Source: a virus
Taxonomy: Duplodnaviria; Heunggongvirae; Uroviricota; Caudoviricetes
Virus record (IMG/VR): IMGVR_UViG_3300010383_000113
Location: 1 to 37,829 of that record
Length of the DNA stretch: 37,829 bases
Reading direction: 5' to 3' (one strand)
The notes beneath the pieces were generated by a model that saw nothing but the letters and a program-made list of their open reading frames with translations, did not search any database and was not told the origin of the DNA. The position numbers and the translations under genes were made by a program. Shown here piece after piece: positions 4,365 to 36,923 of the stretch (the first letter of the stretch is position 1; the number at the start of each line of letters is the position of its first letter).

Positions 4365-4552
4365 CGCATCACCTCCGAGCGAACGTACTGGAACACCCAG
4401 AGGGGCCACATCAGGCTGGCGTACAGCGTGAAGAAGCGATAGCCGGGGATCGGCCAGGCCGGGCGATTGAGGAGGAGCAGGGAGGCGAAGATCACACAGC
4501 CTGCCGCGTAAACCCCTAGGACGACCAGCAGCCCCAAAAGAATGGTGCTCAT
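4361..4552 (-). CDS. Small two-TM membrane protein
   Basis: 63 aa, hydrophobic, ASLMWPLWV motif; ATGA coupling. Confidence 0.7.
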   Translation of the reverse strand: MSTILLGLLVVLGVYAAGCVIFASLLLLNRPAWPIPGYRFFTLYASLMWPLWVFQYVRSEVMR

Positions 4553-4788
4553 CGGAAGTGCTCCGGCATCTTGTAGGGGGCCGCCAGGTGATTGATGAGG
4601 GAGCCGTCCGGCCTGAAGAAGAACTCCACGGTCGCCCCATCCCCTGCTCCTCCCCCGATGACCAGCGAGTTCTTCGTGGTCAGGTACTCGAAGTTGTACA
4701 GGAAGAAGTCGTCGTCGGAGAGGTTCCCCTCATTCTTCACGAGGTACTGGCTGAAGAGGCGTTCCAGCGTCTCTCTGTCCGTCATCAT
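4549..4788 (-). CDS. Hypothetical protein
   Basis: 79 aa, ATGA coupling. Confidence 0.65.
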   Translation of the reverse strand: MMTDRETLERLFSQYLVKNEGNLSDDDFFLYNFEYLTTKNSLVIGGGAGDGATVEFFFRPDGSLINHLAAPYKMPEHFR

Positions 4789-5383
4789 GCCACAGGCCCC
4801 TTTCGTGCAGTTTGGCGTCGGCCTCGGCCTCGGCGAAGGCCTTCATGAGGTCGGGGTTGAACTTGAACTTCCTGTAATAGCGGCCGTAGCCCTCGCGGAT
4901 GAGGTGTTCGTTGACGAGCCGGCCATCGAGGTAGACGTAGGCGATCAGCCGAGAGAAGCCGTCCAGCCGGTTCTTCTCGAACTCCAGGTGGACGTCCCGG
5001 CCTTCGAGCATGGCCTTGGTGTGGGCCGACGCCTCTTTGCCGAAGGGCTGGGGGCCACGATGGGTATCGACCGTCTCGGGAGTGTCGACGCCGATGAGCC
5101 TCACTTTGTATAGGACGTCGCCTCGGGCGACCTCGATGGTGTCGCCGTCGACGACCCGGATGACACGGACTTTGTCGAAGGCGGAAGGGCAGTCGCAGGA
5201 TTTGCAACACTGGCACGGGCCGGGCTTGGCACAGCAATCGTCGCCCGCGTAAGAGAGGAGTAGCAGGGAGATCAGGGCACTAAACACGATAAGGCCTCCT
5301 AGGTGGACTTGGGATGTTCCAGCTAGGAGACCTACACCGAAGGGCTTGACCCCCTCCCTGCTACGCACGCGAAGCGTGCTCAC
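4730..5383 (-). CDS. Thermonuclease (SNase) family protein with TM/signal anchor and Cys-rich linker
   Basis: VIRVVDGDTI, VRLIGVDTPET, FGKEAS, RLIAYVYLDGRLVNEHLIREGYG, AEADAKLHERGLW. Confidence 0.92.
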   Translation of the reverse strand: MSTLRVRSREGVKPFGVGLLAGTSQVHLGGLIVFSALISLLLLSYAGDDCCAKPGPCQCCKSCDCPSAFDKVRVIRVVDGDTIEVARGDVLYKVRLIGVDTPETVDTHRGPQPFGKEASAHTKAMLEGRDVHLEFEKNRLDGFSRLIAYVYLDGRLVNEHLIREGYGRYYRKFKFNPDLMKAFAEAEADAKLHERGLWHDDGQRDAGTPLQPVPREE

Positions 5384-6102
5384 GCATTGGTCGCTGTCGG
5401 ACGATTGTTCAAGATACAGACCGGCAAATCGCCATACTCCCGCTCGACCTCCCGGTCCAGGTACGCTAGATCGAACGAGGTTGGGTCGCCGGGCTTGGCG
5501 TGCCGATCCGTCACGGTGTCGAGCCGGTAGCCATCGTCGTCGCGGCGGATTCTCCAGACGATGTTCGACTTCCAGAAGATCGAGTCGGATGGGGAGTCGA
5601 GAAGGCTGTATCGTCCCCGTCCGCTCGAATTCGTCTGAATGGTCAGGAAGGCGAACTGATCGTTGTCTCGTGCGACCTGGTTGATCGCCCTGATCCCGTC
5701 GGAAATCTGTCGCAATTCGGGAGATTCGTCGCTGGTGAAGAAGTCGGGCTGGTCGATCATCCAGATCTTGCAGCGTGGCACGTTCTTCATCGTGGCGAGG
5801 ATTTTCTTAATCTGTCTCTTCTCGCGGAATCCCCCGACCATGAGTCCCGAGGAGTCATTGGCGTTCCTACTGATCGACCTCAGAAGCCGAGTCTTGCGAG
5901 ACTTGACAGGGGCGAGAATCGTGTAGAGGCCCGGATGCTCGATGGGCCGCATGCCGGGGATGCCGGTCGTGATCGAGAGGTGCCCAGGGTCTTCGACGAC
6001 GTCGCCGAGAACGCGGCCAGAGGTCGCGGCTGCCGCGAAGCCGCCCAGGCTGGCGGCGGCGGTGGTGCTTAGGCTCGTACGGATGAAGTCGCGTCGACGC
6101 AT
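5380..6102 (-). CDS. Tat-signal protein with degenerate DnaB/RecA-like domain
   Basis: MRRRDFIRTS twin-arginine signal; TILAPVKSRKT, IWMIDQPD, FLTIQTN, SDSIFWKSNIVWRIRRD resemble SF4 helicase motifs. Confidence 0.55.
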   Translation of the reverse strand: MRRRDFIRTSLSTTAAASLGGFAAAATSGRVLGDVVEDPGHLSITTGIPGMRPIEHPGLYTILAPVKSRKTRLLRSISRNANDSSGLMVGGFREKRQIKKILATMKNVPRCKIWMIDQPDFFTSDESPELRQISDGIRAINQVARDNDQFAFLTIQTNSSGRGRYSLLDSPSDSIFWKSNIVWRIRRDDDGYRLDTVTDRHAKPGDPTSFDLAYLDREVEREYGDLPVCILNNRPTATNA

Positions 6103-6109
6103 AGATGCC

Positions 6110-6658
6110 TCAGAGTTGGTAGGTGTGGAACTGCCGGTCCAGAGACTTCTGGGTGACTAGCTTGTCACCCTTGATGAGCCAGGCCGAAGAAGCCGAGTAT
6201 GAGGCGATTATGGGCCTGCATGTGTAGACTGAAGAGTGTTTCTGCCACTTGGTGCTGATGAAAAGCCTCCAGTCACGCAGTTCAGCCAGCTTCATCAGCC
6301 TGACACAACTACTATGACGGATCCGGTGATCTGCGGCGTACAGGAAGTCATCAGCGAAGACGGTCAATCCTTTTTGGCAAGGCAGTCTTTCAAAGTCCGG
6401 CTTTCTGTCGTGCTCGTGCTCGTAGGTCGACGACGTCCCGAGACAAAACTGACCTCCGATCTGTCGATGGAGCCTTCTCATCACAAACGAGGTGGCTACC
6501 GGGTTGTCGCCCGCGACGACGTAAATGCCGGGCTCTGCCGGTGCCTCGAACCCAACAATAGGCGGATAGAGCGTGGCGGCCTTTAGGGCTCCCCAGCCCA
6601 GGCTGGTCGTCAGAGGTACTGCTGCCCCGATGCGAATGAAGTCGCGTCGGTTGGTCAT
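6110..6658 (-). CDS. Tat-signal protein, likely divergent paralog of 5380-6102
   Basis: MTNRRDFIRIG signal; PGIYVVAG and TVFADDF at equivalent positions. Confidence 0.55.
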   Translation of the reverse strand: MTNRRDFIRIGAAVPLTTSLGWGALKAATLYPPIVGFEAPAEPGIYVVAGDNPVATSFVMRRLHRQIGGQFCLGTSSTYEHEHDRKPDFERLPCQKGLTVFADDFLYAADHRIRHSSCVRLMKLAELRDWRLFISTKWQKHSSVYTCRPIIASYSASSAWLIKGDKLVTQKSLDRQFHTYQL

Positions 6659-6661
6659 TTT

Positions 6662-6943
6662 TCAAGACTCCTCGTCGATGGTGATTCGAGTCCCGTCGGG
6701 AAGTTCGGCGTAGAGGACCGAGAACTTGCCGCTGCCGCATTCAGGCTCGACTTCGTCACCGTCGACGTCGACCCCTTCGGAGCGGAGCCATTCCAGCTCG
6801 CGGTTGCAGTCGCAGCCGAAGTTGCCGGTCGTCCACCAGAAGATACTGTAGTCATGCCATGAGAGGTTTTGGTCGATGACTCGGATCTCTCCGGTCTCGT
6901 TCTTCCGCATGGCGATCTTGTAGGACGGGGCGATCTCGTTCAT
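6662..6943 (-). CDS. Hypothetical protein (GNFGCDCNR motif)
   Basis: 93 aa ORF. Confidence 0.75.
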   Translation of the reverse strand: MNEIAPSYKIAMRKNETGEIRVIDQNLSWHDYSIFWWTTGNFGCDCNRELEWLRSEGVDVDGDEVEPECGSGKFSVLYAELPDGTRITIDEES

Positions 6944-6946
6944 GAT

Positions 6947-7234
6947 TCACCAGTAGGTTGCGGCCAGACATCCCGGGACGCCAATGAACTCGATCCACTG
7001 CTTGCAGGTCTTCTGAAGCCTTAGTTCAAGCCTGCCGCCTTCAGAGACCAAGGAGAAGACGGAATCGTCGTCGAGGCGTTCCACCCCGACGATTGAGAGA
7101 TCCTCGATGTCCTCGGCGAGGTTCTCGGCCAGGATGGCGACGGCATGTTCGGGCGACGTGGCGATCACCCAGGACTTTTCACCTATCTCGTCGATGAGAT
7201 AGACGGAGAGGGGAGTAGCAGGGAGGGCGGTCAT
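6947..7234 (-). CDS. Hypothetical protein
   Basis: 95 aa, ATGA coupling. Confidence 0.7.
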   Translation of the reverse strand: MTALPATPLSVYLIDEIGEKSWVIATSPEHAVAILAENLAEDIEDLSIVGVERLDDDSVFSLVSEGGRLELRLQKTCKQWIEFIGVPGCLAATYW

Positions 7235-7491
7235 ACGGTGCTCATCTCCTGGTCCGTGGCCTTGCCGGGGTTTTCATCTGGGTGGGATGGGGTGGTCGGA
7301 GGAGTCCTCTCAAGTCGACCGATGATTTTCTCTGCCTTGACGACCTCGACGATCTCTACGGATGTGACGTCATTCTGCTGAAGGAGAAAGTAAGCTTTCG
7401 CCATGGCGTCGTCCCGAGTGACGTCGTCATGCAGGGTGATCCGCCCTGGGTATTCACCTTGGCTTTCCTATCGGAGGAAGAACTCAGGCAT
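7231..7491 (-). pseudogene. Small gene with in-frame TAG at codon 8
   Basis: MPEFFLR*ESQGEYPGRITLHDD...EMSTV; RBS present, overlaps genes on both sides. Confidence 0.6.
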
Positions 7492-7651
7492 TTTGCCCTC
7501 CCTGCTCCCCGGCGGAGCCGGTTGTGAAATCCTGTCCGCACGTCAGACATCGCCAGTGATCGTAACAGCCGTACTGACCACGGTCCAGGATGCGGGTTCG
7601 TCGGTCTTCGCCGCATCCGTTGCAGTAGATCACCCCATTTTCGATCGGCAT
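7484..7651 (-). CDS. Small zinc-ribbon protein
   Basis: MPIENGVIYCNGC...WRCLTCG; GAGGAGG RBS. Confidence 0.7.
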   Translation of the reverse strand: MPIENGVIYCNGCGEDRRTRILDRGQYGCYDHWRCLTCGQDFTTGSAGEQGGQNA

Positions 7652-8034: not shown

Positions 8035-8419
8035 TCTGCCCTCCCTGCTCCTCCGCCGCAGGCGGCTCGAACTTGGACTTCAGCCAGAGGTATTGCTGGT
8101 ACTGCCACTTCCGATTGTATTCTTCCTCGGCGGATTTCTCCGCTTCGTGTCGTTGACGTTTAACGACCTCGTCGCGAAGCTCATCATCGGTTCGCGTGTA
8201 GTCGGCCAACTTCTCGACATTCAGTCGCTCATCCTTCTCGCCCCAGTGATAGAACTGGACCTGGAAGTCGTCGAGACCTTCGGCGGCCTTGTGCTCCTCG
8301 ATGATCCGGACGATAAGGTTGGCGGAGGTCGGGGTCGGCAGATCTTCGGCGATCGGGTGTTCGTAATTCTTGATCACACGGTCGATCTTGTAGCACTCGA
8401 CCAGTTCGTCGAGGGTCAT
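8021..8419 (-). CDS. Hypothetical protein
   Basis: 132 aa; TAAGGAG RBS; ATGA overlap with the isrB stop. Confidence 0.75.
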   Translation of the reverse strand: MTLDELVECYKIDRVIKNYEHPIAEDLPTPTSANLIVRIIEEHKAAEGLDDFQVQFYHWGEKDERLNVEKLADYTRTDDELRDEVVKRQRHEAEKSAEEEYNRKWQYQQYLWLKSKFEPPAAEEQGGQNVVD

Positions 8420-9450
8420 GTTTTGATCTCCTTATGTAGGGTGAAGGTGGTTCTAAAGGAAAGGTAGGATAAAAACCTCAAGTCTTCTGGCCTGGCGTGT
8501 TGTGAAATCCGTTTTCCTGATACGAGATCGTGCAGGCTCACTCGGCCTTTCGAAGATCCGCCGACGAACGTTAGGCCGTGTTTTGGGTGTTCGACCAGAC
8601 TCCCTCGGTTGAATCCTAAACTACGTGTTCCGCCTTGTCGCCTTCGGAAGCCTCCTTTGGTTGGTTGTAATAGATGAAGTTGACGACGAGCATAATCAAA
8701 AGGTGTGGCTAACAACACTCCAATGAAATCGGGCTTGAAATGTCCGCCGACGATTGAGTTCGCCATCACCCAGGAATCGACGCAGTGGGCATGGAAGTCG
8801 TTGGACAGCTTGGCATTGATCTTCGTCAGGCCGTGTAGAGATCGTAGTTCGGCCGTCCTCTCACCTTCGACGAGCGTCAGGGCGGCGAACTTCTCCACTT
8901 CGGCATAGAGCCACTGCTTGCCGACCTGGAGAGGGCTGAAGGATTTGTTCCAGCGATATTTTCCTTTCTTCGTCTCGGCTTTAACGTCCTCGACGACGAC
9001 GTGCTTGATAGGATACATTTTGCAAAGCCAGTTCAGGACCCGCAACTTCCATTGCCAGCGAGCTTTGGTGGAAGGCGGGATTCGTCCTTCGGGGGCCGCT
9101 CGATTGAGTCTGCACTTGCGATAAGGAGTCTTTCGAGATCGCCTAGTTCTTCGCATGTTACGTCGAACTTCCATCTTCTCCTCGACGCCCGTACGGGCAT
9201 CGGCCTGGATGTTGAGGAAGGTCTTGTGACGTGACTTGACGGTGAATCCTTCCTTCTTCGATCCGGGATCGACGCCGACGACGACTGCCTGAGTGACGCG
9301 GGCCGAGGGCTCGACGTTGAGCCGGACACAGAACACGCCGTGCTTCCAGAACGGCGTCGCCTTGTCGGACTTGATCCAGGACGCAGCCCGGTTGGGTGTC
9401 GTGGGCATGAGCGGTTGTTGGTTTTGGTCAACGACGGGAACGCTGAGCAT
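8416..9450 (-). CDS. isrB: IsrB, OMEGA RNA-guided nickase (PLMP/RRXRR, split RuvC, no HNH)
   Basis: 344 aa; QPLMPT, RuvC-I VGVDPGSK, Arg-rich bridge helix RRNMRRTRRSRK, RuvC-II VVVEDVK, RuvC-III HAHCVDS; no HNH insert. Confidence 0.9.
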   Translation of the reverse strand: MLSVPVVDQNQQPLMPTTPNRAASWIKSDKATPFWKHGVFCVRLNVEPSARVTQAVVVGVDPGSKKEGFTVKSRHKTFLNIQADARTGVEEKMEVRRNMRRTRRSRKTPYRKCRLNRAAPEGRIPPSTKARWQWKLRVLNWLCKMYPIKHVVVEDVKAETKKGKYRWNKSFSPLQVGKQWLYAEVEKFAALTLVEGERTAELRSLHGLTKINAKLSNDFHAHCVDSWVMANSIVGGHFKPDFIGVLLATPFDYARRQLHLLQPTKGGFRRRQGGTRSLGFNRGSLVEHPKHGLTFVGGSSKGRVSLHDLVSGKRISQHARPEDLRFLSYLSFRTTFTLHKEIKT

Positions 9451-9661
9451 GGGCGGTAAGCCCTCCTGTGTACATCCCTTCGACGCTGGCGACCCGAGAG
9501 GAAGAAGACTAGGGAGGCATCCTCTACGTCGTTCGGCCTACCACGGCCAGGTCGCTAACTGGCGGTTCGAAACCGCCTCGTCTAGTCGCGTTTTAACTTG
9601 CTTCGGACGGCGGTCGGGCTTCCGTCTTGACAAGCCCCTTCCTTCAGGATGGGGTTATGAC
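8416..9661 (-). mobile_element. IS200/IS605-superfamily isrB element (omegaRNA + isrB), no tnpA
   Basis: End-like GTCATAACCCCATCCTGAAGGAAGGGGCTTG at the omegaRNA 5' end; more AT-rich than flanks; 3' boundary uncertain. Confidence 0.7.
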
Positions 9662-9681
9662 TCCGTTCGCGGTAGCAGGGA
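9451..9681 (-). ncRNA. omegaRNA (HEARO-like): scaffold about 9661-9451 plus 5' guide about 9681-9662
   Basis: Structured leader directly upstream of isrB with typical blocks ACCCC..CCTGAAGG..GGGGCTTG, GACTAG, GGATGCCTCCCTAGTC..CTCT, GTCGAAGGGA; internal hairpin GGCGGTTTCGAACCGCC. Confidence 0.8.
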
Positions 9682-9892
9682 GGGTCAACTCTTCAAGATG
9701 CTGCATCGCAGTGAAGTCGTCGGCTTCGACAACGGCCTTGGCCAATCTTCCAAGTCGTTCCGCCGGGAAGCCCTTCTTCTCCAGAAGCCAGATCAAATCA
9801 CCCATCACCATGTGGCGGCATACCTGGGGATAAGGGAAGTTGAGTAGGCCCTTGATGAGTTCGAAGATGTCGTCTTGGGTGATCGGTGTCAT
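9644..9892 (-). CDS. Hypothetical protein; last codons lie inside the IS end
   Basis: 82 aa; RBS supplied by the motif copy at 9899. Confidence 0.7.
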   Translation of the reverse strand: MTPITQDDIFELIKGLLNFPYPQVCRHMVMGDLIWLLEKKGFPAERLGRLAKAVVEADDFTAMQHLEELTLPATANGVITPS

Positions 9893-10098
9893 CGCCCTCC
9901 CTGCTCCTCTTTTGGATGTCCAATATGGTAGGCCTGGCAGATTTCGCAGCGGTACGCCTTCATCCCCTCTGGACTCTTCCAGGTGTTGTGGCTCCAGTGG
10001 AGCGTCTCAATCGCCAACTGGGCCTCGACCATGGAGTAGTAACGACGCTTCGCCCTGAAACACTGGCGGACCGGCTTGAGTCTGAGCTTGAATCCCAC
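9889..10098 (-). CDS. Small basic zinc-finger-like protein
   Basis: AYRCEICQAYHIGH. Confidence 0.7.
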   Translation of the reverse strand: MGFKLRLKPVRQCFRAKRRYYSMVEAQLAIETLHWSHNTWKSPEGMKAYRCEICQAYHIGHPKEEQGGR

Positions 10099-10159: not shown

Positions 10160-10182
10160 GCGACTTCGTCGGTAGCAGGGAG

Positions 10183-10452
10183 TCAGCACAAAAGGCCCGT
10201 AGTCACCACGAGGTCGAACAGGCGGCCTTCGAGGGGAAGGCTGACCTCCTCATGGCGGAAGCTGCCGTCTTCGTTGTAGAAGAAATCACTGATCGCGTCG
10301 GCGACCTCGTCGTCGGTCTGCATCGAGTTGATGAAATGGTAGTTCCAGGAGTGGAGACGGTCGGCCGTGGCCTTGTCGACGACCAACTCGTAGAAACGGA
10401 TCGATTCGGGGACTTCCTGGAAGATGACGAAGACCTTGAGCGTTTCGGTCAT
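10183..10452 (-). CDS. Hypothetical acidic protein
   Basis: MTETLKVFVIF...; AGGAG RBS. Confidence 0.7.
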   Translation of the reverse strand: MTETLKVFVIFQEVPESIRFYELVVDKATADRLHSWNYHFINSMQTDDEVADAISDFFYNEDGSFRHEEVSLPLEGRLFDLVVTTGLLC

Positions 10453-10460
10453 GGGGGCTC

Positions 10461-11003
10461 CTAGAGAATCCTGGGGTTTCGCAGGTTGGTTCCACACCAT
10501 GGGCAAAATGAGATTTCGACGGCCGACTGGCCGCCGTCATGGACGATCAGGCCGTAGGTCCCGCTGTTGGGCCAGTAGACCACCAATTTGTCAGGACAGT
10601 CGTATGGACTCTCGTGCTGGTCGCAGGTGTGCTGGAGGTTGGACCTCATGCGGTCGCAGCAGATGTGCTCGCTGGGATGCGGCCGTGGTTCGTCGACTGC
10701 CTCTTTCTTGACGCCCGAACGAACAACCTCTATGACATCTGCCACACGGCGGAAGTCCGGATATTTGTTCTGATTGTACTTCAAGAATCGTTCGACATTC
10801 TTGCCGATCGGCGAGTGAGGGCTGGCTACCATGACGACCTGAACATTTTCGTCGTCTGCGGTTTTCCAGACGGGGACGGACTCCCATCTCTTATCAGCCA
10901 GAATCTCCGAGTAGAACGCCAGGCGATAGTCGTCGACGTTATCGGCCAACACCCCCTGCTCCTCTTCTGAGGATTGAGAATTATCGACGTAGTTGGAAGC
11001 CAT
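10461..11003 (-). CDS. Hypothetical protein with Cys-rich C-terminal domain (DUF6980-like)
   Basis: Likely start MASNYVD coupled to the parB stop; CCDRM..CDQH..DCPD..YGLIVHDGG..ISFCPWCG. Confidence 0.7.
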   Translation of the reverse strand: MASNYVDNSQSSEEEQGVLADNVDDYRLAFYSEILADKRWESVPVWKTADDENVQVVMVASPHSPIGKNVERFLKYNQNKYPDFRRVADVIEVVRSGVKKEAVDEPRPHPSEHICCDRMRSNLQHTCDQHESPYDCPDKLVVYWPNSGTYGLIVHDGGQSAVEISFCPWCGTNLRNPRIL

Positions 11004-13662: not shown

Positions 13663-14052
13663 TCAGAGGCCTTTCCAGAAGTAGAGTGCGACGACGGCCA
13701 GGGCGAAGGTGACGATGGAGGAAGGTTCGGGCACGGCCGTTTGCGGGCCTGGCGGCCCGCCGGGAGTAGCAGGGAGGGGCAATCCCACGATCGGCGTCGT
13801 GATCTGCGGGCAACTCGGCAGTTCGCCCACCTCCTGCTCCTCTTCTCGCGAAGCGAGGATCATGGCGGCGACGTTGGGATGATAGGACGTGAACCTATCG
13901 GGGTTGATCTCGAATCGCTGTTCGAGCATCTGCCAGATCGGCGTGTCGGGCAGGTCGCCCTCGTGGAGTTTCTGATAGACCTGGCTGCGGAAGAGGCCGG
14001 CGGCGTGCTCGACTTCCCATTTGGAGGGCGGAAGCGTGAAGGTGAAACCCAA
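13663..14052 (-). CDS. PEP-CTERM sorting-domain protein
   Basis: C-terminus AVPEPSSIVTFALAVVALYFWKGL after a Pro/Gly linker. Confidence 0.8.
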   Translation of the reverse strand: MGFTFTLPPSKWEVEHAAGLFRSQVYQKLHEGDLPDTPIWQMLEQRFEINPDRFTSYHPNVAAMILASREEEQEVGELPSCPQITTPIVGLPLPATPGGPPGPQTAVPEPSSIVTFALAVVALYFWKGL

Positions 14053-14127
14053 GGGGCGGTCCTCAATACCAAAGGCTGCGGCGGTTCTCGACGATCTTCT
14101 GGAGGATCACGATCAGTTCGTCGTCGC

Positions 14128-14394
14128 TCATGCCACCCCCTGCTCCGTGTTCATGATGAATTGCAGCCGGACGGTCGAGGTGTCGTCCCTCACGTCCTTC
14201 ACCTTGATGATATAGGACGAGCCGAACATCGTCGGGCTCAGGTGTTCGCGGATGGCCCGGGGGATGGCCTTCACGTCGGCCTCGCCCTCGAAGGGCACCT
14301 CCAACAACTGGGTCAGGATGCCGTTGTGGAAGTCGGCCTCGGCGGTGACGCGGCGGCCCCAGTGCAGCACGTTCTTCGACTTGGTGGCGACCAT
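14128..14394 (-). CDS. Hypothetical protein
   Basis: 88 aa; GAGGAG RBS. Confidence 0.7.
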   Translation of the reverse strand: MVATKSKNVLHWGRRVTAEADFHNGILTQLLEVPFEGEADVKAIPRAIREHLSPTMFGSSYIIKVKDVRDDTSTVRLQFIMNTEQGVA

Positions 14395-14398: not shown

Positions 14399-14572
14399 TC
14401 ACTCCTCGTTCTGGGTCATTTGCTCGAACGTCTTGCGAAGCATCTCGTCGGTGATCCGACTGTTGGGGTTGCGGGCCCTCCAGTGGGCGACGGCCGCATT
14501 CCTCAACCCCCTGCTCCACTTCCTGAGTTCTTCCGGCCTGATCGAGATGGTCTTGTTGTTGGCGTTCAGATC
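14399..14572 (-). CDS. Open frame without a canonical 5' start (CTG start or +1 frameshift extension)
   Basis: DLNANNKTISIRPEELRKWSRGLRNAAVAHWRARNPNSRITDEMLRKTFEQMTQNEE fills the gap exactly. Confidence 0.45.
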   Translation of the reverse strand, partial: DLNANNKTISIRPEELRKWSRGLRNAAVAHWRARNPNSRITDEMLRKTFEQMTQNEE

Positions 14573-14738
14573 AAAGCTCCATCTTGGGGCCGGGCTTGAC
14601 GTCGCCGCGTTCGTCGACGATCAAGTAGCCCTCGTGGATCAGGCAGTTGACGATGGTGCGTTCCGTCGGGGTCAGCCTGACGAAAGGCAGCCCTGTCAGA
14701 TGATAGGACACCAGCCGGACGATCTCTTCGGGTATCAT
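14571..14738 (-). CDS. Small hypothetical protein
   Basis: Own translation MIPEEIVRLVSYHLTGLPFVRLTPTERTIVNCLIHEGYLIVDERGDVKPGPKMEL; ATGA-coupled to the sigma gene. Confidence 0.65.
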   Translation of the reverse strand: MIPEEIVRLVSYHLTGLPFVRLTPTERTIVNCLIHEGYLIVDERGDVKPGPKMEL

Positions 14739-15319
14739 GCCGCGACCATCTCCCTTCGAATGCGTTCTTCGGAGCTACGCTGGATCTGACGAACTCGTTC
14801 CTTGGAGATGCCCCTGATCTTCGCGATGCCCTCCAGGGTGCGGTATTTGAAGTATCTGTCGTACAGGATGCGTCTCTCGTGCTTCTTGAGTCGTTTCAAG
14901 ATCATCGCCACCCTCTGGCGGTTCATCAGGCGGTCGATCCCTTTGTCCTCGACGCCTTCTTCTCTGGTCGGGGGCGACTTCATGATCTTGTTGGCCTGGC
15001 GTCGCCTCTGAAGTTCCGTCGCGACGTCCTGGTAGACGATCCTCCAGGCGTACGTCATGAACTTGCAGCCCCTCGTGTGGTCGAAGAACTTCTTGGCACG
15101 AAGCAGGGCCATCATGGCGATCTGGCACATGTCGTCGTCCCAATGGGGATTGACGCCGAGATCCCTCATGATCCGGAAAGTCATGGGCTCGTACTGAAAA
15201 ACGTCGATGTCCGGCCCGGGAACGGGAGCAGGGAGGGTGATGGGGGTCGACGTCACGAACGAAGGGTGGGCCGGATCCGGCGGTTCGTAGATCAGGAAGA
15301 TGTGTGATGCAAAACTCAA
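14735..15319 (-). CDS. Sigma-70 family RNA polymerase sigma factor (regions 2 and 4)
   Basis: MALLRAKKFFDHTRGCKFMTYAWRIV (region 2), RTLEGIAKIRGISKERVRQIQRSSEERIR (region 4.2); start uncertain. Confidence 0.9.
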   Translation of the reverse strand: MSFASHIFLIYEPPDPAHPSFVTSTPITLPAPVPGPDIDVFQYEPMTFRIMRDLGVNPHWDDDMCQIAMMALLRAKKFFDHTRGCKFMTYAWRIVYQDVATELQRRRQANKIMKSPPTREEGVEDKGIDRLMNRQRVAMILKRLKKHERRILYDRYFKYRTLEGIAKIRGISKERVRQIQRSSEERIRREMVAA

Positions 15320-15342
15320 AGAAGTTCCTCCTGGTTAGGACT

Positions 15343-15555
15343 TCAGGCCCCGATCAACTTCTTGCAGATCCCATCAATCTGGTTGGCGTGTTCATGGGTC
15401 GAAGACTGAAAGTATCCCCAGTCGTCGTCGGTGGCGTCCTCGGCCAGCCTTCGGATGACGTCGGCCAGATGCCGGATCGTCTGAATGTCGCGTCGAGTCT
15501 CCTGCTCGATCGCCGAGAGGTCCTTCAGGATGCCGAACGGCCTGTCATGACTCAT
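15343..15555 (-). CDS. Hypothetical protein
   Basis: MSHDRPFG...; GAGG RBS. Confidence 0.6.
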   Translation of the reverse strand: MSHDRPFGILKDLSAIEQETRRDIQTIRHLADVIRRLAEDATDDDWGYFQSSTHEHANQIDGICKKLIGA

Positions 15556-15913
15556 CGTCTTCCTCATTTCGCAATTGCAGCAACTCAAGGGCTTCGACGC
15601 ACTCGACCAGCATCTCGCCGATCTCGTCGGCCGACATCTCTCGGCTCACCTCCATGCCGCGTCCGAGGTATTTGTACCAGCGGACCTCCAGGGTGCCCCA
15701 CTTGAAATTGGGTACGTCGTCGGAATCGTCGTCCCAGTCGAAGGCCTTCACGGAGAAAGCGTCGCACGAGAATCGATTGCCCGTGTTCGCGAAGGGGCTC
15801 GGGTATTCGCCGAAAGACTGCCCGGCGGCGTCACTCGAACACGACATGAGCCGACAAAGCTTTCTGTCGATCATCTGAAGGGCGGCGAGGAGCAGGAGGT
15901 CGTTCATGGCCAC
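15545..15913 (-). CDS. Hypothetical protein
   Basis: 122 aa; PNFKW..VRWYKYLGRGM. Confidence 0.75.
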   Translation of the reverse strand: MAMNDLLLLAALQMIDRKLCRLMSCSSDAAGQSFGEYPSPFANTGNRFSCDAFSVKAFDWDDDSDDVPNFKWGTLEVRWYKYLGRGMEVSREMSADEIGEMLVECVEALELLQLRNEEDDES

Positions 15914-16193
15914 ACTCTTCCATCAAAATTCGAAGCCGGGCCTGGTAGATCTCCATGTCACGCTGTATCTGCTCTTTGAAAGCCACGACGCCTCGCTCAC
16001 GAAGTTCTTTGCGGAGTCTCGTCTCCAACGCAAGGGCTGAGTTGCATGCCTTGCAATAGTGGTTGAAGGTCGTCTTTGAGGACTTTCGACGATCGAATTC
16101 CTCGCGAGGCTTCGTCTCCGCACATCGCGTGCAGCGAAGTTCCAGAGGGCAGTCGTCCGGAACCGGGAGGCCTTCGAGTTTACGTCCGGCCAT
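15831..16193 (-). CDS. Zinc-finger protein
   Basis: RCTRCAETKPREEF...YCKAC, like the N-terminal Zn finger of phage HNH/EndoVII proteins, without an evident nuclease domain. Confidence 0.65.
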   Translation of the reverse strand: MAGRKLEGLPVPDDCPLELRCTRCAETKPREEFDRRKSSKTTFNHYCKACNSALALETRLRKELRERGVVAFKEQIQRDMEIYQARLRILMEECGHERPPAPRRPSDDRQKALSAHVVFE

Positions 16194-16548
16194 TGGGCGA
16201 TTCCTCCATCGCTTCGAGTCTATTCTTCCACTCATCGTGCTCGTAGGCGGCCTCTTCGAGTTCCTGCTCGATGCGTTGGCACCTATTGGCCAGGGACTCG
16301 ACGTAGGCGGCCGTGGCTTCCTTCAGGGTGCCGTGGCAATCTTGCGGCCTGACGAAGCAGCTCGCGTTGGTGTCGTTGTCGACCGTGCCGTCTTGTTTCA
16401 GGCGTGAAGCGTAGAAGAGGTCGGGCCCTCCCTGCTCCCGAACCAACTTCATCCGTCGGGGAGGAACGGCGTTGAAGTCGGCGTAGCAGGCCGACTCCAC
16501 CGTCCCCTTGATGATCCAGAACACGTCTCCGACCTTCGGAACGCTCAT
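16180..16548 (-). CDS. Hypothetical protein
   Basis: 122 aa ORF. Confidence 0.7.
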   Translation of the reverse strand: MSVPKVGDVFWIIKGTVESACYADFNAVPPRRMKLVREQGGPDLFYASRLKQDGTVDNDTNASCFVRPQDCHGTLKEATAAYVESLANRCQRIEQELEEAAYEHDEWKNRLEAMEESPNGRT

Positions 16549-17340: not shown

Positions 17341-17543
17341 GGGAACCTCCGGAGAGTAGCAGGGGGTTAAACGAAGACGGCCTCGGCGACACGTCCGCCC
17401 TCCCTGCTCCTCTTCTCTTCGGCCGAGGGGGATGAGCGGGCTTTGCGGTGGTCGACGAGGCGTATCGGCTTGCAGTCGGGACTTCGGTGGTCGATCGGCG
17501 GATGGATGTAGAAGGGGTTTATCGACCCCTGTTCTCTCGGCAT

Positions 17544-22052: not shown

Positions 22053-22079
22053 AAGGGGCCTCCAAAGAGTAGCAGGGGG

Positions 22080-22388
22080 TCACAGGGGAAGTGCCGTGAC
22101 GCCCCTGGCCTTCAATCCGGTCAGGGTCGCCCACACCTTGGCGGGACGGCGTCCGGAACACCACTCCGCCAATCCTACACGCTCGATGACGGGGAGGTCT
22201 TCCAGGGCGTCTTCGTACCAGTTCAGGATTCGCTGCATGGCGATGACGTCCCATTCGGACGGGGTGCCGCCCAGGGATTCGCGGACGGCGTCGGCCTCGG
22301 CTCGAAGGGCTTCCGAGGCCCTCAGTGGATTCGCGTCGGGAATGTAGTCCAGCACCCAGACGGGCGAGGTGATCGTTCTCGTCGGCAT
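22080..22388 (-). CDS. Hypothetical protein bracketed by an inverted motif pair
   Basis: 102 aa; motif copies at 22069 and 22397. Confidence 0.7.
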   Translation of the reverse strand: MPTRTITSPVWVLDYIPDANPLRASEALRAEADAVRESLGGTPSEWDVIAMQRILNWYEDALEDLPVIERVGLAEWCSGRRPAKVWATLTGLKARGVTALPL

Positions 22389-22408
22389 GATGACCTCCCT
22401 GCTACTCT

Positions 22409-22825: not shown

Positions 22826-22888
22826 GTCAACCCCTTCAGGACTTGTTGAGAGAAATCACGAACGACCAGCCCCGCCCCCTGCTCCTCT

Positions 22889-23897: not shown

Positions 23898-23929
23898 CAC
23901 CCCTCCCTGCTCCACGAGCGGAGCGAGTC

Positions 23930-26684: not shown

Positions 26685-26818
26685 CCCCTGCTCCTCCTAA
26701 TGCCCAAGGCGTTCATCGCACGGCCACCGTTGATTGTAGGACAGCGAACTCGTCGTCATCGTGGAATGCCCGAAGAGTAGCAGGGAGGGGCCGACCTCAC
26801 ACCTCGGCCCCGACTCGA

Positions 26819-30194: not shown

Positions 30195-30251
30195 GGTCGC
30201 CTTTCGGTCGGCTTCGCCGACGTAGCAGGGAGGGCTGTCTACAAACGCCGC

Positions 30252-30599
30252 CTAGATACTAACATCGACTTTGGCCGTCGGGTACTTCTCGCACGCCTCC
30301 AGGAGTCTTTTGAGCCACGGCAGGAAGTTCTTGTAGGTGTCCCATCCGTTTGGCGAATCGTGGCTCCGGAAGTGGTCGGGATTGGCTTCCATCGCGGCGA
30401 TCCCGTCCCGCAGCGTGGAGATGAGTTGATCGGCCTGCGTGATGCCGAGTTCTTCGGGGTGCCAGAGCGGAGTGTAGAGGCCCGCTTCCTCGGCCATGCG
30501 TGTGAGGTTGTGGGTGATGTTGGCGTCGAAGACGATGGTCTCGAACCGCTCGCCGTCATCGTAGGTGCCGGAACGGATCAACGAGATGTCGAGGGACAT
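30252..30599 (-). CDS. Hypothetical protein
   Basis: MSLDISL..ANITHNLTRMAEEAGLY..LW.PEE..PNGW..Y; AAGGAG RBS. Confidence 0.8.
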   Translation of the reverse strand: MSLDISLIRSGTYDDGERFETIVFDANITHNLTRMAEEAGLYTPLWHPEELGITQADQLISTLRDGIAAMEANPDHFRSHDSPNGWDTYKNFLPWLKRLLEACEKYPTAKVDVSI

Positions 30600-30615
30600 A
30601 GGGGCTCCTTTTACT

Positions 30616-30894
30616 TCAAGGGGCGGGGCGAGACTCTAGGACTTCCCGGATAGAGGTTTCAGAATACCCGGACTCGATCAGGAATTGAATCTGGGACTGG
30701 AATCCGCCGTTGTTGATCTCGGACGCTTTGTGCTCGGCCCGACCGATGATCTCTTCTTGCTCGGCCTCATCGTCGGTGGAATTGAGGGCCTCTTCCACGT
30801 CCGATTGACAGGTGGTGTGAACCAGCTCGTCCAAGGCGTCCTCATCACACCCCTCGGCCCTCTTTAGAAGATGAACCACTCTCTCGTCTGACAT
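30616..30894 (-). CDS. Acidic hypothetical protein
   Basis: LDELVH...ASEINNGG..SQIQFL. Confidence 0.75.
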   Translation of the reverse strand: MSDERVVHLLKRAEGCDEDALDELVHTTCQSDVEEALNSTDDEAEQEEIIGRAEHKASEINNGGFQSQIQFLIESGYSETSIREVLESRPAP

Positions 30895-30963
30895 ACGATC
30901 AATCTCCAGCCAGTAGGATGATGCCCCCTGCCCTCCCTGCTACTCTCCACGCCGCAGGCGTGC

Positions 30964-32738: not shown

Positions 32739-32963
32739 TCACTCCTTCGGAGTGGGAGCAGGGAGGGTGATCTCGATGAAGACGGGCCAATCGTAGGTGA
32801 TGACTTCGTCTTGGTACATGGAGAGGAAGGCGTTACCGATGGCTTCTTCTACGGTGCGGCCGAAGTGTCCGTCCCTGTAAGGAGGATCGTCGACCACGGC
32901 CCTCGCGTTGTATCCTCCCGGACACTCCTTGACCGTGATCTTGACGTTAGATGTGATCGCCAT
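32739..32963 (-). CDS. Small protein, HicB-like fold possible
   Basis: ITVKECPGGYNARA...FGRTVEEAIGNA. Confidence 0.6.
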   Translation of the reverse strand: MAITSNVKITVKECPGGYNARAVVDDPPYRDGHFGRTVEEAIGNAFLSMYQDEVITYDWPVFIEITLPAPTPKE

Positions 32964-32973
32964 CTCACCCCTG

Positions 32974-33330
32974 CTACTCTTCAATCTTCTCCCTGATGGG
33001 AGACAGGCTTTCGTGGCTGACGCAGAACAGCTCGCCGGCCGGGTATCCATCTTCGGCGATCCTGACGTAGTAGTGCAAGTCGTCGCCGTCGACTTCGATC
33101 TCGACGCCTTCGTTGATGTCCAGGGCTTCGCGGATGTCGTCGTCGCTTAGTCCGTAGCCATAGACCGTCGTCGGGATCCCGTCGATCTCGCGGACGATCT
33201 CGGAGATGATCTCGGCGTCGAGTTCGATTTCCCCTTTGCCGTAGACGTCGTTCACGTCGTATCCGTCTTCGGCGTTCCCCCACACGTCGTAGGTGCGGAC
33301 TTCCCATCGGGTCGTGATCTTCACCTTCAC
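32974..33330 (-). CDS. Acidic hypothetical protein
   Basis: YDVWGNAEDGYDVND motif. Confidence 0.75.
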   Translation of the reverse strand: MKVKITTRWEVRTYDVWGNAEDGYDVNDVYGKGEIELDAEIISEIVREIDGIPTTVYGYGLSDDDIREALDINEGVEIEVDGDDLHYYVRIAEDGYPAGELFCVSHESLSPIREKIEE

Positions 33331-34103: not shown

Positions 34104-34352
34104 CTACTCTTTGTCGATCAGATGGGGAAAGTAGACAGTCAGCGTCTCGTCCTCGTCGACGTTGAGCATATCTTCCCACCTGGGGATGAGACTGGGATCC
34201 CCCGCCGGAATGGGGGAGATCCCTCTAGCCGCGTCGCTCGCCTCACCCCCAAAGACCATGTCCACCCCGTCCCCCATCGGATGTTCTTCCCCGGTGGGGT
34301 TGTGGCGTACGGCGTAGAAGCTGGAATACTCGATCACGCTGAAAGTCTTCAT
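34104..34352 (-). CDS. Hypothetical protein
   Basis: 82 aa; GGAG RBS. Confidence 0.7.
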   Translation of the reverse strand: MKTFSVIEYSSFYAVRHNPTGEEHPMGDGVDMVFGGEASDAARGISPIPAGDPSLIPRWEDMLNVDEDETLTVYFPHLIDKE

Positions 34353-34573
34353 GACGACTCACTCCGTTCGTCGGGAGCAGGGAGGGGTTCGAGCCAGATC
34401 TCATGGATCACGATTTGTGGCCCATCTTGGAGTTCGGCCAGGAAGATGTGCGGTTGTCGCGGGTGGTATCGGACGATGGCGTGGGCGTCCCCGGTGGGGC
34501 TGTAATTGAATCTCATCTTGAGGTATTCGAGATAGTGGGGATTGATCCTCACTCGGTCGCCGGCCTTGAACAT
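34349..34573 (-). CDS. Small SH3/KOW-like protein
   Basis: MFKAGDRVRI; bracketed by motif pair 34374/34581. Confidence 0.65.
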   Translation of the reverse strand: MFKAGDRVRINPHYLEYLKMRFNYSPTGDAHAIVRYHPRQPHIFLAELQDGPQIVIHEIWLEPLPAPDERSESS

Positions 34574-34774: not shown

Positions 34775-34808
34775 GGTCGTCTCCTAATGGGGAGGAGCAG
34801 GGAGGGGA

Positions 34809-35288
34809 TCACTGGTAAATCGGCTTGATGATCAGGTCTCCGGTCGTCTTGGCGGTCTTGGTGGGTTGTCGTTCGGTGATGATGAAGGCCATGAGGTGAT
34901 TGGGGAATGGCGTATGTCTGTAGGTGTCCGGATAGTGCGGGGGGACGTATCCCCCGGGGTTTCCGATATAGCCGGCCGGCTTGACGTCGAATGTCCGGTC
35001 TTCGCCGCGAATCGGGACGACCAGCGGCTTGACGTTCATGGTGCGGAGGGCTTCAGGCGAGGCGAACAGGTATCCTCGGCTGTAGTCGGGATCGCCCTTA
35101 GGCCCCTTCCAGACGACCGAGGCCCGAGCGTCCATCGGCGTCCCGGACGAATCGAAACCCGGACCAAGCTCGAAGACCGCCATTACGACGACGTCGTCAG
35201 GCAGGCCGTAAGTCTGGTTGTACCACACGATCGAATCTCCAATGGGGAGTAGCAGGGAGGGCCGCCCCTGAATATAGGACAGCCCCAC
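34809..35288 (-). CDS. Hypothetical protein (true start probably a GTG near 35228)
   Basis: Open frame; GGAG RBS near 35237. Confidence 0.55.
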   Translation of the reverse strand: MGLSYIQGRPSLLLPIGDSIVWYNQTYGLPDDVVVMAVFELGPGFDSSGTPMDARASVVWKGPKGDPDYSRGYLFASPEALRTMNVKPLVVPIRGEDRTFDVKPAGYIGNPGGYVPPHYPDTYRHTPFPNHLMAFIITERQPTKTAKTTGDLIIKPIYQ

Positions 35289-35304
35289 CCCCTGCTCCGG
35301 TTTT

Positions 35305-35773: not shown

Positions 35774-35804
35774 GTTGGAGACTCCTAAAGAGGTTCCGAG
35801 GGGA

Positions 35805-35999
35805 TCAGGCGAAGACCACGCCCACCCCGTCGCCTTCCCGCCAACGGATCCGCTCCACCATCTCGGACGCATCCGACGCATAGTGGAACGGCGTGGCGTT
35901 GTAGCTGCGATTCGTCCAGCGATAGAACCGGACGCCCGACCGCCTAATCTGGCGGAAATAGACCTTGCGACCGTTCCTCAAGAGCTTGACCAGGTACAT
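35805..35999 (-). CDS. Small basic protein
   Basis: 64 aa ORF. Confidence 0.6.
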   Translation of the reverse strand: MYLVKLLRNGRKVYFRQIRRSGVRFYRWTNRSYNATPFHYASDASEMVERIRWREGDGVGVVFA

Positions 36000-36072
36000 G
36001 AGAGACCCTTAAACGAAATCAGCCGACGTCCCTTTCGAGAAGCCGGCCGCACCGCGTCGAATTGGCGAAACC

Positions 36073-36315
36073 CTATCCCGCCCGCTTGCCCTTGCCCTCC
36101 CGATAGTCGCGTTCCATCTCGGCCAGCTCGGCTTCCGTGGCGAGCCCCTTCCGCACGACGGTCAGGACGACGCGACACACGCCGCTATTGTTCTGGAACG
36201 GATTGAGCGGCCCCTTGACGTGGTCGATCCGGATGACATGCCCCCTATGGTTGAAGTGTCTCCCCCTGACTGCATTCTCACGGCCGACGAGGTCGATTTG
36301 CATGGTGGTACGCAT
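36073..36315 (-). CDS. Hypothetical protein
   Basis: MRTTMQIDL... Confidence 0.6.
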   Translation of the reverse strand: MRTTMQIDLVGRENAVRGRHFNHRGHVIRIDHVKGPLNPFQNNSGVCRVVLTVVRKGLATEAELAEMERDYREGKGKRAG

Positions 36316-36343
36316 CTCCGACGGTTTGCCCTCCCTGCTACTC

Positions 36344-36574
36344 TCACAACGCCCAGGACGGATGATCGGCCGCATCTTCGACGGTTCGGCATCGGGTCGA
36401 CTTATGAATCGGAATCTTACGGCGGGTGAAACGCTCCCAGGCATAAACTTGATCATCGTCGTGTCCACACGGTTGTCCGACCCTGACGATCCGGCCGGAC
36501 GCCACCCATTGGCCAAAGGCCCGATAGACCAGCTCCACTATCTGCCCGATCTCGGCCTCACCTACCGTCATCAC
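36344..36574 (-). CDS. Hypothetical protein
   Basis: MTVGEAEIGQIVEL... Confidence 0.55.
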   Translation of the reverse strand: MMTVGEAEIGQIVELVYRAFGQWVASGRIVRVGQPCGHDDDQVYAWERFTRRKIPIHKSTRCRTVEDAADHPSWAL

Positions 36575-36614
36575 GGACTTTCCCTTTCGCAAATTGAGAA
36601 GAGTAGCAGGGAGG

Positions 36615-36878
36615 TCAGGGGAGATCGGGGACCGCATCTCGGTTGCCGGTCAGGACGCCGTATCGCGTCCCTAGGCTGGCGTAGACGAGATCCCCGGGCT
36701 TGTCGCCAACCATCGGCTCGTATCCTCCCCGGCGTCGCCACGATGCGTAGCTCTGCATGGCGTTGATGAAACCCTCGAAATCGGCGTCATCCCCATGCAG
36801 GCCATCCATGAGGACGGACGCCCCCTCTAAACACACTTTCGGATCCAACGTCGTAACCCCCACAAGCGGATTTCCCAA
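36615..36878 (-). CDS. Hypothetical protein
   Basis: DP..CL...Y.SWRRRGGYEP motif; bracketed by motif pair 36603/36902. Confidence 0.7.
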   Translation of the reverse strand: MGNPLVGVTTLDPKVCLEGASVLMDGLHGDDADFEGFINAMQSYASWRRRGGYEPMVGDKPGDLVYASLGTRYGVLTGNRDAVPDLP

Positions 36879-36923
36879 GGGGAGGGACGAACGCCGCCCC
36901 TCCCTGCTACCGGCGAAGCCGAC

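Follow-up and report, generated by a model that had tools for sequence, protein, structure and literature searches.

The SAS/ESAS elements of Cluster K mycobacteriophages are 13-bp asymmetric words that contain the ribosome-binding site and lie 3 to 7 bp before the starts of non-structural genes. An inverted repeat lies ahead of about half of the copies, the word is absent from the host and its function is unknown. Nearly all of the 11 to 19 copies share one orientation, and they are confined to sites before starts within the non-structural half of the genome (PMC3203893). The stoperators of Cluster A mycobacteriophages are also 13-bp asymmetric sites, with more than 20 copies per genome, mostly in short spacers near starts and stops. 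They are read on the DNA by a monomeric phage protein and have a polar action; the site varies by phage lineage and its orientation tracks the direction of transcription (PMC9283540). GTAG-tagged REP elements, including REPIN and BIME, comprise a small hairpin with a conserved body and an unpaired 5' tag. Among REP dimers, head-to-head or tail-to-tail arrangements predominate and tandem ones are rare, the spacer is variable and some copies are intragenic (PMC3733652). In the PeSL cassettes of T4-type phages, small novel ORFs of plastic regions are flanked by repeated motifs composed of a promoter and a stem-loop; these direct repeats of about 70 bp, found in early regions only, are proposed to mediate the shuffling of single genes (PMC2839356). 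Finally, uptake sequences are short asymmetric words with a density of about one per kb and no fixed orientation, and many of them lie in ORFs whose codon or peptide choice is bent to accommodate them. About 10% are in inverted pairs, and some close pairs follow genes (PMC1939737).

Here we describe a word of 13 bases, GKAGCAGGGRGKG, in the 166-kb record of an uncultured phage from soil. The initial 38 kb (37,829 nucleotides) of this record are referred to as the window. The word resembles SAS in being asymmetric, 13 bases long and associated with a ribosome-binding site, with a hairpin that precedes sense copies. Unlike SAS, it is present in 138 copies, half of them reversed, which alternate in orientation over the whole genome and also lie inside long ORFs. 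With stoperators it shares the 13-base asymmetric site, the many copies and the position in short spacers beside starts and stops, but its orientation alternates independently of transcription. The phage looks lytic, with neither an integrase nor an immunity repressor identified in its record, which also differs from the stoperator phages. As in REP/REPIN, there is a hairpin with a tag, inverted dimers dominate, spacing is variable and some copies are intragenic. Here, in contrast, the tag is the conserved part and lies 3', most copies are hairpin-free, pair spacing reaches kilobases and no RAYT was found; the stems vary, whereas REP has a conserved palindromic body with a 5' GTAG tag. The word also differs from PeSLs in that it alternates and occurs within structural genes. 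Chi is a short asymmetric bacterial word comparable to uptake sequences. Chi and uptake words are bacterial, 5 to 12 bases long, with no reported alternation of orientation and no adjoining hairpin, and the phage word differs from them in these respects. To our knowledge, there is no comparable Chi- or uptake-like case in a phage.

Results

Distribution and orientation of the word

A preliminary description of the window had pointed to an abundant 9-mer, and we indeed counted 41 copies (18 forward, 23 reverse), versus 0.46 expected from dinucleotide shuffles. The genes of the window are all on the minus strand, so that reverse copies are sense and forward copies antisense in the mRNA. The 138 copies of the whole record amount to about one per 1.2 kb. 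Their consensus is identical for sense and antisense copies, which are nearly equal in number (73 and 65, respectively), in contrast to the single orientation that characterizes SAS/ESAS. The copies of the window are as follows (coordinates, strand, feature).

1404..1431, both strands, convergent pair, 19 bp gap, local hairpin form
4474..4650, both strands, convergent pair, 168 bp gap
5260..5364, both strands, convergent pair, 96 bp gap; reverse copy with a hairpin (6-bp stem, TTC loop)
7215..7508, both strands, convergent pair, 285 bp gap; stop 7 nt ahead of the antisense copy; sense copy with a hairpin and without a long ORF behind it
8043..8051, minus, unpaired sense copy with a hairpin; start 8 nt downstream
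9672..9907, both strands, convergent pair around ORF 9644-9892; forward copy also within the guide portion of the omega RNA of IsrB
10172..10962, both strands, convergent pair, 782 bp gap; stop 2 nt ahead of the antisense copy, which has a hairpin
13766..14146, both strands, convergent pair, 372 bp gap; degenerate reverse copy at 13832
14509..14517, minus, unpaired sense copy
15225..16438, both strands, convergent pair, 1205 bp gap; forward copy within the sigma-factor gene
17356..17410, both strands, convergent pair, 46 bp gap, gene-free interior
22069..22405, both strands, tight bracket of gene 22080-22388; sense copy 8 nt before the start, antisense copy 2 nt after the stop
22877..22885, minus, unpaired sense copy
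23905..23913, minus, unpaired sense copy; start 7 nt downstream
26686..26694, minus, unpaired sense copy; GTG start immediately after
26777..26785, plus, forward copy; closest reverse partner is a degenerate copy at 29304
30222..30943, both strands, convergent pair, 713 bp gap, two genes enclosed; both copies with hairpins
32755..32977, both strands, bracket of the gene starting at 32963; TAG within the sense copy doubles as the upstream gene's stop codon
33349..34107, both strands, convergent pair, 750 bp gap, two genes enclosed; TAG of the sense copy is the upstream stop codon
34374..34589, both strands, bracket of gene 34349-34573; antisense copy within the last 30 nt of the gene
34794..34802, plus, unpaired antisense copy, 6 nt after a stop
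35249..35298, both strands, convergent pair, 41 bp gap, local hairpin form
36333..36341, minus, unpaired sense copy
36603..36910, both strands, convergent pair, 299 bp gap; antisense copy 3 nt after a stop; sense copy with a hairpin
37214..37222, minus, unpaired sense copy with a hairpin

As initially reported, 16 of the 18 forward copies of the window have a reverse copy next, and a runs test of the orientation order gave 32 runs versus 21.2 expected (z 3.5, permutation p 3e-4). The difference in median spacing was also confirmed, with 256 bp for forward-then-reverse and 716 bp for the opposite order (Mann-Whitney p 0.008). As the preliminary description had required of it, the order is significant genome-wide, with 106 runs versus 68.6 expected (z 6.5), and position-weight-matrix definitions of the word gave z values of 6.1 to 6.6. 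Alternation is present inside one-directional gene blocks and within the structural-gene block, long structural genes included (z 3.1). Neighbouring copies have opposite orientations in 105 pairs and the same orientation in 32, inverted dimers thus outnumbering tandem ones as they do in REP/REPIN, and same-orientation neighbours are scarce at short range (2 of 30 pairs below 300 bp). Convergent gaps are shorter than divergent ones over the genome (545 bp versus 1108 bp, p 0.002), and consecutive gaps are negatively correlated (r -0.24). The even spacing of same-strand copies (CV 0.60 and 0.62) was rejected as separate evidence for a polar signal, being mostly a consequence of alternation. Intrinsic terminators have a local GC hairpin with a U tract behind it. 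Seven pairs are less than 60 bp apart, two of which (38055/38080 and 155417/155442) are followed by a T-rich tail; the tails after most antisense copies are C-rich rather than U-rich.

ORFs of at least 900 nt harbor 37 copies (15 sense, 22 antisense), versus 2.0 expected from a codon-order shuffle or 7.2 from a synonymous shuffle, and these copies occupy all three reading frames. The nucleotide word itself is thus selected, independently of translation signals. Such an enrichment beyond codon usage, in both orientations, is a trait of Chi- and uptake-type words. An exact-word scan of IMG/VR returned 61 contigs with a single match each, which is compatible with chance, and no other word-rich contig.

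Position of the copies relative to genes

It had been proposed that inverted pairs bracket single genes. Four of the eight pairs listed in support do so tightly at both ends (22069/22397, 9672/9899, 32755/32969 and 34374/34581), whereas in the remaining four no start codon lies at ribosome-binding distance behind the sense copy. Similarly, the placement of sense copies near ribosome-binding sites and of antisense copies near gene ends applies to part of the window only, where a usable start follows 9 of the 23 sense copies and a stop precedes 10 of the 18 antisense copies. Across the genome, 24 of the 73 sense copies are followed by a start codon with an ORF of 35 codons or more, which, together with the reversed copies, differs from the strictly start-upstream position of SAS/ESAS. 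Sense copies at starts carry a Shine-Dalgarno sequence 5 to 10 nt upstream of the start codon. Antisense copies at stops are localized 2 to 8 nt 3' of the stop codon, inside the footprint of the terminating ribosome. The possibility that antisense copies are ribosome-binding sites of plus-strand genes was ruled out, as no start codons are found at the proper distance.

The adjoining hairpin

A GC hairpin was observed next to about 30 of the 138 copies, or about a quarter, the other three quarters having none. The hairpin lies 5' of the word, which forms a 3' tag, with GTAG present in one third of the copies. The stems covary, their sequence being variable and their pairing kept. On the strand of the word, the triloop is TNC in 20 cases and GNA in none. 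TNC loops are found in sense (13) and antisense (7) copies alike, so that their polarity is independent of the direction of transcription. Hairpin and word thus flip as a unit relative to transcription, which is unlike a single-function RNA signal. Rfam and tRNA scans of the window revealed nothing at the gathering score and no tRNA. An IS200/IS605-type OMEGA element (IsrB) adjoins one copy. IsrB was rejected as a general reader of the word: only about 10 bases of its guide, on the side away from the scaffold, overlap with a single copy, and those next to the scaffold are unique.

Comparison with related phages

A megablast search of 12 kb against isolated phages gave no match, and protein searches revealed only distant terminase and DnaE relatives. 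Terminase relatives among genome contigs consisted of 16 phage contigs, binned into MAGs of many phyla, from which no host could be inferred. A relative whose terminase is 50% identical contains the same core with a different flank, in 35 copies in 40 kb. Alternation is weaker there and only marginally significant (24 runs versus 18.4 expected, p 0.04), and convergent gaps are 414 bp versus 1617 bp for divergent ones (p 0.002). Two further, more distant relatives have shifted variants of the core. Copy positions are mostly unconserved between the phage and the first relative, with one shared site among the 7 to 9 copies compared in their common structural genes. The sequence surrounding the portal-gene copy aligns gap-free to the relative, so this copy is not an insertion, and the interior of the portal-gene pair is conserved as well.

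Four small genes are common to the phage and this relative, in scrambled order. Two strains of the relative differ by a 209-bp insertion that comprises one 76-aa gene and starts 3 columns past a copy; in the same two strains, the point at which identity changes from 100% to about 60% is about 250 bp away from the closest copy. Additional strain variants of the small-gene array have the same gene coordinates, are apparently identical and revealed no more indels. Three soil sequencing runs contained at most 10% of the words, in short low-coverage contigs of related strains, and provided no usable joints, ends or inversions. They thus speak neither for nor against invertible segments (invertons), which are marked by a site-specific invertase and by reads in both orientations.

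Discussion

Gene-cassette ends, long-range mRNA stems and convergent DNA-looping sites had been put forward to explain the inverted pairs. The pairing is real and genome-wide; the case for cassette ends is weak, RNA stems are possible, and paired sites at the DNA level fit best because the loop polarity follows the word and not transcription. We thus tentatively favor a DNA-level signal that is strand-specific and maintained in the form of convergent half-site pairs. GKAGCAGGGRGKG would be read on the DNA in a strand-specific manner, with a short GC hairpin attached to about a quarter of the copies, its triloop being GNA on the C-rich strand, and convergent half-site pairs across the entire genome would cause the orientation to alternate. 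Where free spacer is available, the two halves would lie 19 to 54 bp apart. Among small packed genes, with one copy per spacer, the halves would end up in adjacent spacers, with one or two genes between them, and in long genes the word would form part of the coding sequence itself. Spacer copies in the sense orientation would double as Shine-Dalgarno sequences via their G-rich tail, and the TAG of the T-variant sometimes provides the stop codon of the upstream gene. A putative phage-encoded reader that evolves with the word may act on single-stranded or extruded DNA, in replication, in recombination or in the polar blocking of a tracking enzyme. In its fullest form, which is possible although somewhat doubtful, this reading would define genome-wide two-part convergent boundary elements, some with a GNA-triloop DNA hairpin, that are read by a co-evolving phage factor on single-stranded or extruded DNA and, in small-gene arrays, are split around single genes and double as translation signals. 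The tight placement of copies at starts and stops also suits an RNA model.

In such a model, which we consider rather unlikely but a serious rival, the sense copy at a ribosome-binding site would pair with the next antisense copy past the stop in a long-range stem of 9 to 20 bp in the polycistronic mRNA. The stem would close the ribosome-binding site after the first round of translation, couple read-through to translation, or form an RNase III site. The Shine-Dalgarno sequences supplied by sense copies and the antisense copies just after stops are consistent with this gating, and pairwise use would directly account for the alternation. Sense-then-antisense is the closer order in two phages and would permit a burst of translation before stem closure. 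Of 23 brackets, 18 have their cores paired in MFE folds, and the 22069/22397 pair is able to form 19 of 20 bp, but the reverse order folds equally, with cores paired in 15 of 16 cases. Covariation between partners is absent, their variable positions matching like those of shuffled partners (p 0.46). The initial observation that the A/C (G/T) position matches only about half the time was correct: 9 of 16 pairs matched in the window and 33 of 53 over the genome, versus 54% expected, leaving 20 of the 53 mismatched. Moreover, 32 neighbouring pairs share their orientation, the hairpin loop polarity tracks the word rather than transcription, and long ORFs are equally enriched in copies, whichever the frame, and stems located there would have no start or stop to act on.

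The word could also act as a recombination linker or cassette end, the spacer copies providing short homology for the exchange, gain or loss of single genes among co-infecting relatives and the inverted layout avoiding deletions within one genome. We regard this as clearly unlikely, since the word is conserved, equally enriched and alternating inside long conserved ORFs. The scrambled order of the four shared small genes and the rarity of same-orientation neighbours at short range agree with such a role. An association of indels with the motif was seen in the single informative case, where the 209-bp insertion abuts a copy that fills most of its spacer; any gene-sized indel necessarily falls into a spacer taken up mostly by the word. 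In contrast, the identity switch of the same strains lies away from the nearest copy, partners resemble each other no more than randomly paired copies do, and bracket interiors lack the homology to each other expected of a mobile cassette or MITE. No recombinase for such sites is encoded in the record, be it an integrase, a resolvase, or a tyrosine or serine recombinase. More generally, "gene cassettes" flanked by inverted repeats can come from a genome-wide signal pressed into short spacers.

A REP/REPIN-like selfish repeat, that is, a tagged hairpin spread by a single-stranded DNA transposase, with inverted dimers later separated by inserted DNA, is highly improbable. The hairpin with its unpaired tag, the inverted dimers, the rare tandems and the intragenic copies recall this class (PMC3733652), and the IsrB element beside one copy is of the IS200/IS605 type. 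However, the conserved part is the tag, whereas the stems differ and covary, which points to selection for structure and not to copying. The 3' position of the tag, the three quarters of copies that are hairpin-free and the portal-gene copy, which is not an insertion, also argue against it. Y1 transposase (PF01797) is absent from the phage record, control genomes being positive.

Phage N4 has hairpin promoters, which the hairpin, conserved word and G-rich leader may resemble, and two sigma-70-family genes are encoded, but a role in transcription, as a promoter or another signal recognised by one of these sigma factors or by a hairpin-reading polymerase, is the least probable reading of all, as half of the copies would drive antisense transcripts in one-directional arrays, 37 copies lie within long ORFs, no second conserved block was found at promoter spacing from the word, and a single-subunit polymerase was not found in a search without a working control.

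Dispersed asymmetric phage words such as stoperators and SAS are rare windows on phage-specific regulation. The word described here is distinguished by its coverage of the whole genome including structural genes, by the nearly perfect alternation of its orientation and by a shared core with drifting flanks, this core being common to a large family of environmental phages of 150 to 240 kb, which is uncultured. If the DNA-level reading is true, two-part boundary elements would represent a genome-wide punctuation that has not been described for any phage; the RNA version, if true, would imply genome-wide long-range stems that gate each enclosed gene. Should a reader protein or RNA pairing be found, the word would reveal a new way in which a large phage organises its replication, recombination or expression, and would also provide a sequence signature for recognising members of the clade.

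Distribution and placement of the word

The 9-mer GKAGCAGGG (forward) or CCCTGCTMC (reverse) is present in 41 copies in the window, against 0.46 expected. Beyond the 9-mer, sense and antisense copies alike share four further positions (R, G, K, G), together with a 5' flank weakly enriched in purines; the resulting word, of 13 bases rather than nine, is used symmetrically. The preliminary description had reported inverted pairs of copies that bracket single genes, and all its numbers for the window were reproduced: a reverse copy comes next after 16 of 18 forward copies (32 runs versus 21.2 expected, p 3e-4), the median spacing is 256 bp in this order versus 716 bp in the opposite one (p 0.008), and the G/T position (described there as A/C) agrees within about half of the pairs. 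The order holds genome-wide. The 138 copies of the whole record are evenly spread, about 1 per 1.2 kb, and their orientations alternate (106 runs versus 68.6 expected, z 6.5), including within the plus-strand structural block (z 3.1). Defining the word by position-weight matrices leaves this result unchanged.

Reverse copies are sense in mRNA, because the window genes lie on the minus strand. A start codon opening at least 35 codons is found 2-15 nt downstream of 9 of the window's 23 sense copies, and a stop codon precedes 10 of the 18 forward, antisense copies, in several cases by only 2-8 nt. Tight bracketing of genes by the eight pairs first listed was confirmed at both ends for four, but at one end only for the others. 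In the T-variant sense copies 32969 and 34099, the upstream gene stops at the TAG inside the word. In this GTAG variant (TAG at window positions 32974-32976 and 34104-34106), the 13-mer comprises both the stop and the ribosome-binding site of the next gene.

The ORFs of at least 900 nt, 60 kb in total, harbor 15 sense and 22 antisense copies, in all three frames, where 2.0 are expected from a codon-order shuffle and 7.2 from a synonymous-codon shuffle. The word is selected inside long ORFs and therefore does not behave as one needed at gene boundaries only.

Phage record and gene layout

The IMG/VR virus record, of which the window is bases 1-37829, comprises 165,829 bp, is labelled a provirus and 86% complete. 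It encodes a large terminase, a DnaB helicase, a ribonucleotide reductase, a nicotinate phosphoribosyltransferase, a DnaE polymerase in two pieces and two sigma-70-family factors. Genes were called with our own frame-comparison gene caller. They lie almost all on the minus strand from 1 to 40.1 kb, on the plus strand from 40.2 to 76.8 kb (large structural genes) and on the minus strand in the remainder. By its terminase the phage falls into a very large group of environmental phages, whose contigs measure 150-240 kb, and no close relative was found among isolated phages. Individual loci include the following.

Window 5380-6658, minus strand: two neighbouring ORFs with weak N-terminal twin-arginine signal matches, below the Pfam cut-off
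Window 8416-9450, minus strand: IsrB homologue (PDB 8DMB, E 6e-41, residues 3-327; Pfam RRXRR), its stop overlapping the start of the next gene
Window 9661-9422: full-length HEARO/omega-RNA match directly upstream of isrB (28.5 bits, below the gathering score), the guide region containing antisense copy 9672 and 10 unique bases
Window 11003-11914: ParB-like gene, without parA nearby
Window 14735-15319, minus strand: first sigma-70-family gene, ECF-like, 194 aa, containing forward copy 15225
Genome 83048-88801, minus strand (6149-11902 of L072, a handle within the same record): split DnaE polymerase III alpha, one ORF with the PHP and NTPase part and one with the finger and HhH part; the gap of about 1.85 kb between them holds the convergent word pair 86360/86578
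Genome 122.7 kb: second sigma-70-family gene, an open frame of 374 aa

Judged by these matches, window 8416-9661 (minus strand) looks like an OMEGA element within a phage operon.

A hairpin oriented with the word

Immediately on the 5' side of the word, about 30 copies carry a GC stem of 4-7 bp with a triloop. Stem sequence varies from copy to copy, with pairing fully kept. On the word's strand, 20 copies (13 sense, 7 antisense) have TTC, TGC, TAC or TCC as triloop; loops of the complementary GNA type were never observed on this strand among hairpin-bearing copies. Loop polarity is the same in sense and antisense copies, so the composite of hairpin and word has a single orientation and turns over as a unit with respect to transcription. 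On the C-rich strand, the same loops belong to the C-GNA-G class, which is unusually stable in DNA.

Spacing of convergent pairs

Genome-wide, gaps are 545 bp for convergent pairs (forward then reverse) versus 1108 bp for divergent ones (p 0.002), successive gaps are negatively correlated, and seven convergent pairs are only 19-54 bp apart. Two independent regular arrays would yield 89 ± 4 runs, fewer than the 106 observed. The pair thus seems to be the unit. Same-strand spacing is also more regular than random placement (CV 0.60 and 0.62 versus 0.97), but keeping the label order and shuffling the gaps already gives 0.67 and 0.75; this regularity is mostly a product of alternation and was rejected as separate evidence. 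Inverted neighbours do not co-evolve: their variable positions and flanks match only as well as after partners are shuffled (p 0.46).

The word in related phages

We analysed about 61 kb (Logan contigs L077 and L182-L190) of the nearest phage with fetchable long contigs, whose terminase is 50% identical. Its core is identical, with the 5' flank TTTG instead of AGAG. The 40-kb early region contains 35 copies in 24 runs versus 18.4 expected (p 0.04), with median gaps of 414 bp (convergent) and 1617 bp (divergent; p 0.002). This second genome thus repeats the main features, though with weaker alternation. Among shared structural genes, where 7 to 9 copies were compared, one copy occupies the same place in both phages, in the portal gene, where it encodes Pro-Leu-Leu. 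That positions are mostly not conserved points to a turnover of sites under constraint on their arrangement. Four small genes are common to the relative and the window, in scrambled order.

Two further relatives (terminase identity 47-48%) have shifted variants of the word, GGGGGCAGGGAG in one and AAGGCAGGGGAAA in the other, both present in both orientations. The word is absent from more distant AT-rich members of the terminase family. In many of these (L132, L153, L124, L118, L099 and others), short palindromes peculiar to them recur many times; one such 15-mer, with the pattern CTGCCA-AAA-TGGCAG, reaches 13 copies in 22 kb.

L184 (reverse complement) and L077, which represent two strains of the relative, show 100% identity across 7.6 kb of early genes, after which it falls to about 60-85%. 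This fall (alignment columns 7550-7630) begins immediately past a GC hairpin whose loop is TGC, in a divergent control region, and looks like a sharp recombination joint in this alignment. On L190 (15962-17317), an ISL3-family transposase gene adjoins a ParB-HTH gene.

Comparison with described motifs

The sense half of the word resembles the Cluster K start-associated sequences with upstream inverted repeats (PMC3203893), and the word is like Cluster A stoperators (PMC9283540) in its size and asymmetry, in how densely its copies occur and in their location in spacers. Both of these are co-oriented with transcription (PMC3203893, PMC9283540), whereas the word is not. REP elements (PMC3733652) share the inverted-dimer preference and the tagged hairpin, but here the conserved and variable parts are swapped and the tag is on the opposite side; unlike in REP systems, no RAYT was found in the record. 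Uptake sequences (PMC1939737) and Chi are likewise enriched inside ORFs, but the alternation seen here is not reported for them. Since each likeness is partial and each comparison fails in some feature, we place the word in none of these families; it is probably a dispersed asymmetric phage motif of new form.

Possible role of the word

Our tentative preference is for the word as a DNA-level signal. It explains where copies lie relative to starts and stops, the order of copies, the absent covariation, the copies within ORFs and the hairpin polarity. One convergent unit would consist of two inverted half-sites, adjacent wherever room exists. Among packed genes the half-sites would be forced into neighbouring spacers and so flank single genes; in long genes they would be embedded in coding sequence. 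Sense copies would be doubly used as ribosome-binding sites.

Gating by sense-antisense pairing of copies in mRNA, proposed in the preliminary description, appears less likely. The stems are thermodynamically possible, and pairing accounts for both the start and stop placement and the preferred order, but it leaves unexplained the absent covariation, the intra-ORF copies in all frames and a hairpin polarity independent of transcription direction. What probability remains is shared by a REP-like repeat, a promoter and recombination linkers. The last, proposed earlier as cassette ends, have poor support: the word fits equally well into conserved long genes, the segments enclosed by pairs show no homology to one another, no tyrosine or serine recombinase is encoded among the record's proteins, and although a 76-aa gene insertion between the relative's two strains starts 3 columns after a copy, this lone informative indel looks like any gene-sized change in a word-filled spacer.

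For the DNA-level signal, the hairpin suggests reading on single-stranded or extruded DNA, and the drift of the word between lineages suggests a putative phage-encoded reader. Candidate DNA-binding proteins of the phage are the ParB-like protein, both sigma factors and small basic proteins that the relative also has. Lineage-specific dispersed words may be a trait of the terminase family.
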